From Ignavibacteria bacterium (GTDB taxonomy: Bacteria > Bacteroidota > Ignavibacteria > SZUA-365), in the NCBI GenBank assembly GCA_002869275.1, contig PKTF01000078.1, positions 1,839 through 65,838 of the forward strand: a DNA stretch of 64,000 nt, read 5' to 3'. Of this stretch, positions 6,545 through 8,530 are shown one piece after another (position 1 is the stretch's first letter; every line of letters begins with the position of its first letter). Made by a program: the position numbers and the translations under genes. Below the pieces are notes generated by a model. That model ran no database searches, was not told the origin of the DNA, and was given only the letters and a program-made list of their open reading frames with translations.

Positions 6545-8530
6545 TTATTCCGCGATGCGGAATTCCACGCGGCGATTCCTGGCGCGGTTTTCCTCGGAGG
6601 TGTTCGGCAGCTGGGGACGAGCTTCGCCATATCCGATCGCCTGCAGGCGGGACTCGGGAACCCCCTGCTTCAGCAGATAATTCACAACGGACTGTGCACG
6701 CTTGTTTGACAGTTCCAGGTTGTACTCTTCGGTGTCAACATTATCCGTATGCGCTGCGATCACGATACCGATCTGCGGATTGGTTTCGAGAAAACGGACG
6801 AGCCGTTCCAGCTCGAAGAACGATTCCGGTTTAAGGTCCCACTTGTTGAAATCAAAGAAGACATTGTTCACGCGCTGAGCCAGCAGATCACCCCACTTGT
6901 CTCGGCGGTTCGGATCCATCATGCTTTTCACGGACTGCAGCCTGAAGTTGTAGTTCATATTATTGCTGCCGTTGCCGTCGCGGTTGTTGCCGTCGCCGTC
7001 GCGGTTGTTGCCGTCACCGTCGCGGTTGTTGCCATCACCGTCGCGGTTGTTGCCGTCACCGTCGCGGTTGTTGCCGTCACCGTCGCGGTTGTTGCCATCG
7101 CCGTCGCGGTTGTTGCCATCACCGTCGCGGTTGTTGCCGGAATCAGACAAATCCAATCTCTGTGCTTCAGGCACAAAGCCGGGTTTTTCCACAAAGACAC
7201 CATAGTTTCGTCCTTCCGGAACCGTACCCATATACTCGCCTGTTTCTGGATCGCTCTCCAGCATGGCAATCGGCTTTCCGGTATCGAGATCCTGGACAAC
7301 GAGAGTTGCACCGATTCCTCGTCCATCCTCGTCCTCGATTTTACCCGCAATCGTCGCCACGGGATCTTCGGGGCGGACGGCTTTCGGAAGCGTAATCATG
7401 TACAGGTCGTTTTCGCCGCGTCCAGAAGGCATGTTGGAAGTGGAGAAAAAGGCGAACTCTCCGTCCGGGGTGATGCGATAGCCCCAGTCGTCGTCACTGC
7501 CGTTGACATCCTTACCGAGATTGATCGGTTCGCTCCATTCGGTCCAGGAATTTGGATCGAGTCGCACGGATTTGAATACATCCAGCTTTCCGAGTCCGGG
7601 ATGGCCGTCTGAACTGAAATACAGCGTTTTGCCGTCGGGATGCAGGAAGGCCGAGCGTTCGGCGTACTGCGTGTTGATGACCGGACCCAGGTTGATAGGC
7701 GGCTGCCAGTAGGCGCCGCGCTTGACGGAGACGAACAGGTCGGTATTGCCTGCGAGACTGCCGTGGAAGCGCGTGTTCTTCGACACGCGGTCGCCGGTGA
7801 CACCCTGGCGGTCGGAGGTGAACAACACTGCGAAGCCATCGGCGGTCATGAAGGCATCAGAATCGTAGTACTTGCCGTTGACTCCGCGGGGAAACGCTTT
7901 GATGGCCGACCAACCCTGTTCGGTTTTCTCGAAATAATAATTGTCGCCGCTGCCGAGATGTCCCTCGAATCCACCGTAGATCAGGATTTTCGTTCCGTCG
8001 AAAGAAAGCCCGTTGATCGTTTCATGGTCCTCGGTGTTGATCCGGTCACCCAGGTTGACGGCTTCCTGCCAGCTGCCGTTCTCGAACTGGGAGACATAGA
8101 TGTCGAGTTTGCCTCGTCCTCCTTCCCGGTCGCTGGCAAAGTACAGGCGTTTTCCATCGACAGTGACCGACGGTTTGATTTCATCGGCGGGCGTGTTGAT
8201 TCCCGGACCCAGGTTGGTGATTTCCACGTCATACGACGGTTTGTTCAGGATCGCGATGATTTCGTCAAACCGTTTCTCCATACCGGGGAAACGCGGCTTA
8301 TTCGCTTCGAACACCGCGATAGCCGCCGGCCAATCCTTTGCGTCGATGTATGGCCTGGCCAGGCGTTGCACGGCGACAAACGCATCCTCGATGGGAGCCC
8401 ATTTCTCGATATAGGCCTGGTAGTCGTCGGAATCCTCCATCTTGAAGATGTCTTTCGACAGCGAACAGGCGGAAAGCAGGCTCGCTGCGAAGATGATCAG
8501 GAGGAATGCCGGGAAACGGGAGTGCTGCAT
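6545..8530 (-). CDS. OmpA-family lipoprotein with TolB-like PD40 beta-propeller repeats, a low-complexity (DGDGNNR)n linker and a C-terminal OmpA peptidoglycan-binding domain
   Basis: Lipoprotein signal MQHSRFPAFLLIIFAASLLSAC. Repeated PD40-like segments (…DGKxLYFxSDR…). C-terminal OmpA_C motifs NLELSNKRAQSVVNYL…RRVEFRI. Confidence 0.8.
   Translation of the reverse strand: MQHSRFPAFLLIIFAASLLSACSLSKDIFKMEDSDDYQAYIEKWAPIEDAFVAVQRLARPYIDAKDWPAAIAVFEANKPRFPGMEKRFDEIIAILNKPSYDVEITNLGPGINTPADEIKPSVTVDGKRLYFASDREGGRGKLDIYVSQFENGSWQEAVNLGDRINTEDHETINGLSFDGTKILIYGGFEGHLGSGDNYYFEKTEQGWSAIKAFPRGVNGKYYDSDAFMTADGFAVLFTSDRQGVTGDRVSKNTRFHGSLAGNTDLFVSVKRGAYWQPPINLGPVINTQYAERSAFLHPDGKTLYFSSDGHPGLGKLDVFKSVRLDPNSWTEWSEPINLGKDVNGSDDDWGYRITPDGEFAFFSTSNMPSGRGENDLYMITLPKAVRPEDPVATIAGKIEDEDGRGIGATLVVQDLDTGKPIAMLESDPETGEYMGTVPEGRNYGVFVEKPGFVPEAQRLDLSDSGNNRDGDGNNRDGDGNNRDGDGNNRDGDGNNRDGDGNNRDGDGNNRDGDGNNRDGNGSNNMNYNFRLQSVKSMMDPNRRDKWGDLLAQRVNNVFFDFNKWDLKPESFFELERLVRFLETNPQIGIVIAAHTDNVDTEEYNLELSNKRAQSVVNYLLKQGVPESRLQAIGYGEARPQLPNTSEENRARNRRVEFRIAE
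6966..7142. repeat. perfect/near-perfect 21-bp tandem repeat (~8.5 copies), in frame, encoding (DGDGNNR)n inside the OmpA-family gene
   Basis: Direct reading: unit gttgccgtcgccgtcgcggtt (+ strand), with only C/A and G/A third-position variants. Encoded on the minus strand as DGDGNNR x8. Confidence 0.9.

Follow-up and report, generated by a model that had tools for sequence, protein, structure and literature searches.

What is a nearly perfect DNA repeat doing inside the coding sequence of an envelope lipoprotein, and does its length change? This question is raised by a 21-bp tandem array in a stretch of 64,000 nucleotides from Ignavibacteria bacterium (assembly GCA_002869275.1, contig PKTF01000078.1, positions 1,839 to 65,838 of the forward strand), referred to here as the window. 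The array lies within a minus-strand gene for an outer-membrane lipoprotein that resembles PorE and CHU_0125. An initial annotation, made from the letters alone, had described it as an unstable linker between the outer membrane and the cell wall. Our analysis of the array, its host protein and the relatives of both points to a coding minisatellite which is probably driven by slippage and which would encode a disordered tether of variable length.

The array is an in-frame coding minisatellite

Tandem Repeats Finder reported a single array in the region, at 6963..7139 of the window, with a period of 21, 8.4 copies, 94% matches, 0% indels and a score of 298. The initial annotation had placed it at 6966-7142 with 8.5 copies, and its description of a near-perfect in-frame repeat holds. 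A 36-nt pattern spanning two units matched seven times in the window and not once in 100 dinucleotide-preserving shuffles. The array is in frame within the minus-strand open reading frame (ORF) 6545..8530, which encodes 661 aa. Its whole units, aa 466-521 (window 6968..7135), comprise seven copies of NNRDGDG and a final NNRDGNG, and a degenerate SNNMN tail comes after them; NNRDGDG is the unit named DGDGNNR at first, in another register. The DNA of the seven identical peptide units varies only at GAT/GAC and GGC/GGT, both of which are synonymous. A single non-synonymous change, GAC to AAC, is found in the last unit. By form, the array is a coding tandem repeat, with head-to-tail units of high identity, a unit length that is a multiple of three and a location inside an ORF. 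The 21-bp length of the unit makes it a minisatellite and not a microsatellite.

We considered whether the array might act as DNA or RNA structure. This was rejected since 6800-7300 is free of inverted repeats and the window has no match to an Rfam family. The plus-strand ORFs that run over the array (6749..7612 and 6963..7205) were likewise discarded; they are shadow ORFs of repeat-derived AVAVV and PSRLL strings, and homology backs the minus-strand gene only. By inspection, no unit in the window contains D-[ST]-[AILVMT], the O-glycosylation motif of Bacteroidota.

The repeat lies next to the peptidoglycan-binding domain of a PorE/CHU_0125-like lipoprotein

The protein that carries the repeat was examined for its domains, its anchor and its predicted structure. 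Pfam matched PD40 with 83.8 bits and OmpA with 82.5 bits at aa 558-653, the latter above the PF00691 gathering threshold of 27.2 bits. The lipobox consensus is [LVI][ASTVI][GAS]C, and the LSAC of the host protein, ending in Cys22, fits it; homologues from the clade described below have an equivalent SAC, SSC or GAC motif followed by SL. These results agree with the first description of the host as an OmpA/PD40 lipoprotein. The CarboxypepD_reg match at aa 393-464 is weak, with 18 bits and under the cutoff, and homologues carry a precomputed PF13620 match at this carboxypeptidase-regulatory-like domain (CRD). The top NCBIfam model was CHU_0125_OmpA (NF053607), with 243.4 bits against a cutoff of 620, and the second was T9SS_PorE (NF052230; T9SS, type IX secretion system), with 202.9 bits in four stretches against a cutoff of 600. 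Because the protein failed both curated equivalog cutoffs, it is filed only as a PorE/CHU_0125-like OmpA_C lipoprotein. It has the four-domain architecture of PorE, which is a lipoprotein with TPR, beta-propeller, CRD and OmpA_C domains, as judged by Pfam, AlphaFold2 and the lipobox.

The AlphaFold2 model of the protein, which was built on 44 homologues, has a mean predicted local distance difference test score (pLDDT) of 86.4 and a predicted template modelling score of 0.82. The sole segment with pLDDT <50 is aa 466-521, which is exactly the repeat, with values of 37-41 compared to ~90 elsewhere. Foldseek gave template modelling scores, normalised to the target, of 0.8-0.89 against the C-terminal domains of Pal and OmpA. 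The closest sequence match of the C-terminal domain in the PDB is the PorE C-terminal domain 6TOP (E=2e-20). Residues D576, N584 and R591 have been defined as those by which PorE binds peptidoglycan (PMC12773672). D596, N604 and R611 of the host protein align with them at the same spacing; N604 and R611 are invariant and D596 is at least 90% conserved in 44 sequences. As far as sequence can indicate, the lipobox and this triad support the proposal of a tether between the outer membrane and the cell wall. The position given at first, between the propeller and OmpA, needs one correction: the tract does precede OmpA_C, but the CRD (aa 391-460) separates it from the propeller. The linker, as delimited by anchors, is ~88 aa and includes the 56-61-aa repeat.

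Relatives carry different arrays at the same site

A search of 5.8 billion proteins returned 2296 homologues, the best of them with 79% identity. The closest ones (P0001-P0017, P0021 and P0026, with 54-79% identity) all have a repetitive tract rich in Gly, Asp, Asn, Ser and Arg (Lys) at the same position. Their units vary and include GSGND, NGDGR, DGSGRDGDGR, GDGSGKDGA/T, NRNGNNGDPNDPN and others. In a neighbour-joining tree, which is rough, built from the flanks only and without bootstrap, the proteins with a tract group into a single clade, from uncultured Bacteroidota/Ignavibacteria-like metagenome-assembled genomes (MAGs). The initial annotation had suggested comparing orthologues for the presence and length of the tract. 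Measured between conserved anchors on either side, the linker is 61-268 aa inside the clade, with one 38-aa exception near the clade base, versus 29-35 aa outside. The expanded linker is kept by all 22 other full-length clade members in the tree, at flank identities down to ~55-60%.

The DNA gave the same picture, with a tandem array at the linker site in each of the orthologous loci retrieved from GTDB genomes. Synteny supports the orthology of these loci: two relatives (L030 and L031) share with the window a divergent Por_Secre_tail gene on the upstream side and a gene for carotenoid synthesis on the downstream side. The periods of the orthologue arrays range from 15 to 90 bp (15, 18, 21, 24, 27, 30, 33, 36, 39, 45, 48, 60 and longer) and all are multiples of 3; the best-scoring arrays show 85-97% matches. 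Some orthologues have an 18-bp array encoding (DGSGSG)n, and on one closed contig of 5.24 Mb the array is 468 nt long. Homologous arrays are present in more than 25 independent assemblies. That syntenic orthologues all have arrays at this site, with units and periods that differ, favors the recent expansion or turnover proposed at the outset.

The encoded tracts share a composition. The long ones have only 3-14% hydrophobic residues and are strongly hydrophilic, and the net charge per residue of the tracts runs from -0.13 to +0.03, that is, from mildly acidic to near neutral. Asn-Gly and Asp-Gly are the dipeptides most prone to spontaneous succinimide and isoaspartate formation. They are very dense in the orthologue linkers, with up to 94 in one of them (P0008), and the window linker (6959..7165, minus strand) has 16 of these dipeptides.

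Other repeats were seen in relatives. In place of the Gly/Asp/Asn tract, five of them (P0028-P0032, 664-827 aa) have a variable count of ~24-aa 'NGNP...W(D/N)DL.K.GW.V.D' modules, which are inserted in the CRD region; the PorE-like family has here another repeat expansion, distinct from the first. Two related MAGs have non-coding-looking arrays of 49, 61, 86 and 135 bp immediately downstream of the orthologue (L003:5259..5829 and L004:5577..6151).

Linker length differs among nearly identical alleles

We compared alleles within 90%-identity clusters, using those with 0-1 mismatches in ~575 flanking residues. Linker lengths differed by whole units in each of the following sets: 166, 151 and 156 aa (P0013, P0121 and P0123); 143, 168 and 123 aa (P0011, P0128 and P0129); 90 versus 130 aa (P0006 and P0130); and 175 versus 245 aa (P0009 and P0127). 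A further set with a 13-aa unit had linkers of 92, 79 and 131 aa (P0021, P0133 and P0134). Several alleles were found on 2-5 independent contigs. On the assembled sequences, copy number in the relatives alters much faster than point substitution, and collapse or expansion by the assembler may also contribute. The predicted frame-keeping change in copy number agrees with these alleles of relatives, as assembled. The related prediction of phase or length variation stood in part: length varies, but the on/off form, a phase-variable contingency locus, was rejected because all periods are multiples of 3.

One relative shows a frameshift. In L031 (JGI Ga0645780_01490), a 2-nt deletion at position 4864 in the 15-nt array shifts the frame and splits the gene into a PD40 part of 702 aa, with an RRRTQ-type tail, and an OmpA ORF at 5090..5467. 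This deletion is no whole-unit slip. It may be a sequencing or assembly error, or a natural loss of the peptidoglycan anchor.

The expected hotspot for assembly collapse was also borne out. In 8 MAGs, 11 contig ends fall inside the array; in 3 MAGs the gene is split between two contigs, one half on each, with the array at the broken end of both, and many database entries marked 'partial' terminate in the tract. This means that 'partial' PD40 or OmpA proteins in the clade are often the two halves of one gene. It also means that copy numbers taken from short-read MAGs at this locus are untrustworthy, as assemblies repeatedly break there and may also collapse the array.

A proposed account of the tract by slippage and selection

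The constraint on the peptide was assessed by counting the distinct single-nucleotide variant codon types among units, for which the expected synonymous fraction is 0.32 (L030). The ratio of synonymous to non-synonymous types was 7:1 in L030 (P=0.002) and 4:1 in L031 (P=0.007). We also asked if the Asp/Gly/Asn/Ser composition is a mere cryptic RRC triplet repeat at the DNA level (R, purine). This fits the codon bias of the window tract but fails in the relatives, where Ser is encoded mostly by TCC and TCG. Because the Ser of the relatives uses these codons, the composition is maintained at the amino-acid level. The retention of the tract in all sampled clade lineages but one basal member and the synonymous excess argue, at the level of sequence comparison, for some selection.

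We propose that the array is a slippage-driven coding minisatellite and that its product is a disordered tether of variable length, an explanation we consider probable. The array would encode part of a lipoprotein of the PorE/CHU_0125 type that lies in the periplasm and is anchored in the outer membrane, and it would insert a disordered spacer of ~56-61 residues, rich in Gly, Asp, Asn and also Arg, in an otherwise short hinge between CRD and OmpA_C. The N-terminal acyl chains would keep the body of helices, propeller and CRD at the inner face of the outer membrane, OmpA_C would bind the peptidoglycan stem peptide non-covalently, and the repeat would serve as a flexible leash that sets the reach and freedom of OmpA_C. 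Replication slippage or unequal recombination between near-identical units may create and resize the array, and OmpA_C would stay in frame because every unit is a multiple of 3 nt. Selection, we infer, appears to preserve a composition that is long, hydrophilic and unable to fold, with quick drift of the exact unit and of the copy number.

The window tract adds roughly 20 nm of contour length, and a rough coil estimate gives a root-mean-square span of ~6 nm for the whole 88-aa linker. The latter is comparable to the 7.5-nm Lpp brace quoted in a study in which flexible OmpA linkers accommodate the distance between outer membrane and peptidoglycan (PMC8824477). If the tether explanation is correct, the clade offers linkers between outer membrane and peptidoglycan in a series of natural lengths, from ~60 to 270 residues. 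This would bear on how Gram-negative cells space the layers of their envelope, in a protein family tied to outer-membrane integrity and the T9SS.

Several observations weigh against this explanation. Low AlphaFold2 confidence is a proxy for disorder and falls short of proof. Over half of the assemblies have a break inside the array, and the allele lengths could in part reflect collapse or expansion. The instability of the array in the window is inferred solely from relatives; polymorphism was examined in these because no conspecific sequence for the source organism was found by exact protein look-up, by the homologue search (best match 79% identical) or by a two-unit pattern and a flanking 26-mer run against metagenome contigs. 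Within the window array itself, synonymous and non-synonymous changes stand at 2:1 (P=0.09), which alone is not significant. The wide length range among flank-identical alleles argues that length is weakly constrained, as a neutral model predicts. Lastly, PorE function survives deletion of the CRD (PMC12773672), so the spacing needs of the PorE family may be loose.

Alternative explanations

The possibility of a selectively neutral expansion was considered. In that case, a permissive hinge between CRD and OmpA_C collects slippage-prone DNA, the tract has no function except to do no harm, and the composition is what a periplasmic linker tolerates. The huge variation in linker length among flank-identical alleles and the lack of conservation of the unit sequence between lineages both suit this possibility. 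So does the fact that 29-35 aa suffice outside the clade, 38 aa in one basal member and ~6 aa in PorE. RRY codons (Y, pyrimidine) make up 85% of the window tract versus 21% of the remainder of the gene, which is compatible with a simple-sequence origin at the DNA level. Neutrality, however, leads one to expect loss or decay in some lineages, yet the 22 other full-length members keep an expanded linker. Nor does it explain that variant codon types are enriched for synonymous changes and that the Gly/Asp/Asn/Ser/Arg composition is maintained with different codons. We regard a purely neutral origin as still plausible, though unlikely.

Adaptive variation in length is a separate proposal. The tract could be a selected tuning knob, with a hypermutable minisatellite in the tether that continually yields variants of leash length in this uncultured Bacteroidota clade. 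We find this doubtful. Were it true, leash length would alter envelope stiffness, vesicle release or T9SS anchoring, much as the repeat number of tolA has effects on the envelope. On an equally speculative view, a long leash may let OmpA_C switch between docking on its own PD40 propeller, in the manner of TolB and Pal, and binding peptidoglycan.

The initial annotation had called the linker probably Ca2+-binding or flexible. The flexible part agrees with the tract being the only low-confidence segment of the model; the Ca2+ part fared less well. A specific module for Ca2+, or for divalent cations in general, would make each DGDGNN a site like DxDxDG of EF-hands or like thrombospondin type 3 repeats, which would rigidify the linker or bridge it to the envelope. 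Dx[DN]x[DN]G is the Ca2+-binding motif of the literature, and DGDGNN resembles it with the final Gly replaced by Asn. The window linker has a net charge of -7 over its 88 aa. Bacteroidota OmpA proteins with Asp-rich thrombospondin type 3 repeats before OmpA_C exist, and one of them, PDB 5WTL, which binds Ca2+, was among the fold matches. When the window tract and four orthologue tracts were searched at E<=10, however, no TSP_3, EF-hand or HemolysinCabind (RTX) match was obtained; of these five tracts, all but one orthologue tract lacked any Pfam match, and the exception, (GSGND)n, matched only Pentapeptide_2, which is compositional. The candidate motif is not conserved between lineages, being absent from units such as NGDGR, DGSGR and GDGSGKDGA, and many relatives are near-neutral polyampholytes with a net charge per residue of -0.03 to +0.03. 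No fold is predicted for the tract, and the Cys conserved in thrombospondin type 3 repeat (TT3R) units is absent. A dedicated Ca2+ module is thus quite improbable.

That the array or its copy number is a product of short-read misassembly is very improbable: arrays at the locus do break or truncate contigs in 8 MAGs, the 177-bp array is longer than typical assembler k-mers and the frameshift of L031 is perhaps an error, but over 25 independent assemblies have homologous arrays, the closed 5.24-Mb contig among them, the frame is intact into the conserved OmpA_C domain and internal synonymous variants give the array a unique path. For the window, the exact number of copies is the one given by the assembly.

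Feature coordinates and neighboring genes

The features of the repeat-bearing gene are listed in Table 1.

Table 1. Positions in the window of the tandem array, the gene that hosts it and the domains of the encoded protein.
Feature	Position	Strand	Basis
Gene for PorE/CHU_0125-like outer-membrane lipoprotein, 661 aa, repeat host	6545..8530	-	ORF, Pfam, NCBIfam, homologues, AlphaFold2
Signal peptide and lipobox, aa 1-22, ...LLSAC, Cys22	8465..8530	-	Read from translation
N-terminal helical (TPR-like) domain, aa 34-96	8243..8431	-	AlphaFold2 helices H34-44, H48-63, H67-80, H85-96
PD40/WD40-like beta-propeller, aa 104-380	7391..8221	-	Pfam PD40, model strands, Foldseek matches to TolB propellers
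Carboxypeptidase-regulatory-like beta-sandwich (CRD), aa 391-460	7151..7360	-	Weak Pfam match, high-pLDDT strands
21-bp x 8.4 in-frame tandem array, predicted disordered linker; whole units 6968..7135 (aa 466-521)	6963..7139	-	Tandem Repeats Finder, codon table, shuffles, pLDDT <50
OmpA_C domain, model aa 524-660	6551..6961	-	Pfam OmpA, 6TOP sequence match

Two plus-strand genes near the PorE-like gene encode proteins that both end in the T9SS sorting domain Por_Secre_tail, one of 863 aa (8718..11309) and one of 1079 aa (12521..15760). The 863-aa gene is the one divergent from the PorE-like gene, a pairing that is syntenic in L030 and L031, and by eye its product has about six internal Cys-bearing repeats of ~95 aa. 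At 14..5168 on the plus strand there is a Lol-like cluster for the release of lipoproteins, made up of a LolA_like protein, two FtsX/MacB_PCD permeases and an ABC ATPase. It is followed by a 405-aa protein without a Pfam match, which ends in ...GELYF like an outer-membrane beta-barrel. A 992-aa fusion (15753..18731, plus strand) combines the N- and C-terminal domains of glycoside hydrolase family 3 with a beta-lactamase-family domain and may have to do with peptidoglycan recycling. Apart from the 21-bp array, the window has a single large coding repeat, an array at 36992..37404, with 15- and 60-bp units in 27 and 4.9 copies; it lies in a minus-strand gene (36964..37434) for a 156-aa basic repeat protein rich in Lys, Ala and Pro, which looks like histone H1 or AlgP.

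Comparison with known systems

One of the closest known systems is PorE (PGN_1296) of the Porphyromonas gingivalis T9SS, which has the same order of lipobox, TPR-like helices, WD40/PD40 propeller, CRD and OmpA_C. The P. gingivalis protein comprises TPR, propeller, CRD (441-527) and OmpA_C (534-668), with ~6 residues between the last two (PMC7192894), compared to the ~88-aa linker here. Its OmpA_C is the best PDB sequence match (6TOP) and the Asp/Asn/Arg triad is common to both proteins; the host protein reaches 203 bits against the NCBIfam cutoff of 600 for PorE. Por_Secre_tail genes for T9SS cargo adjoin the host gene, with synteny kept in the two relatives. CHU_0125 of Cytophaga hutchinsonii provides the best NCBIfam model for the host, but at 243 against a cutoff of 620. 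It is a Pal-like link between outer membrane and peptidoglycan whose loss leads to a leaky envelope and hypervesiculation (PMC5891637). This phenotype is of the kind that a tether would influence; no repeat tract has been reported for CHU_0125. A search of the literature for repeat or disordered linkers in PorE-like proteins found nothing relevant.

The hinges of OmpA, Pal and YiaD and the Lpp ruler likewise set or accommodate the distance between outer membrane and peptidoglycan, the hinges as linkers between a membrane anchor and OmpA_C (PMC8824477). The OmpA, Pal and YiaD linkers are short and non-repetitive, and the length changes studied there were engineered and not natural repeats. The Bacteroidota OmpA with TT3R (5WTL) likewise has an Asp-rich segment right N-terminal to OmpA_C. 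TT3R is a defined Ca2+-binding motif with conserved Cys, whereas the window tract shows no Pfam TSP_3 match and is predicted to be disordered.

Repeats of variable length also occur in other envelope proteins. Region R of staphylococcal ClfA and Sdr proteins is an acidic Ser-Asp repeat of variable length, with an 18-bp DNA unit, that forms a stalk spanning the cell wall. Its period is the same as that of the (DGSGSG)n array of some orthologues here, but ClfA and Sdr are Gram-positive surface proteins whose SD repeats are glycosylated and not homologous to the window tract. The repeats of TolA are rich in Ala, Lys and Glu and are helical, and TolA itself, a member of another protein family than the host, has its anchor in the inner membrane. 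It is still the closest functional precedent. Its gene has an in-frame repeat that varies among strains and that codes for an extended stretch of this periplasmic envelope protein. In Escherichia coli, the copy number of the intragenic tolA repeat ranges from 2 to 39 and alters the tolerance to detergent, osmotic stress and phage, and contractions occur at 6.9e-5 in a RecA-dependent manner (PMC3477136). Variable coding repeats as spacers of envelope proteins, such as tolA and the SD repeats, are already well known; the case described here is clean and clade-wide, and mechanistically it is unsurprising.

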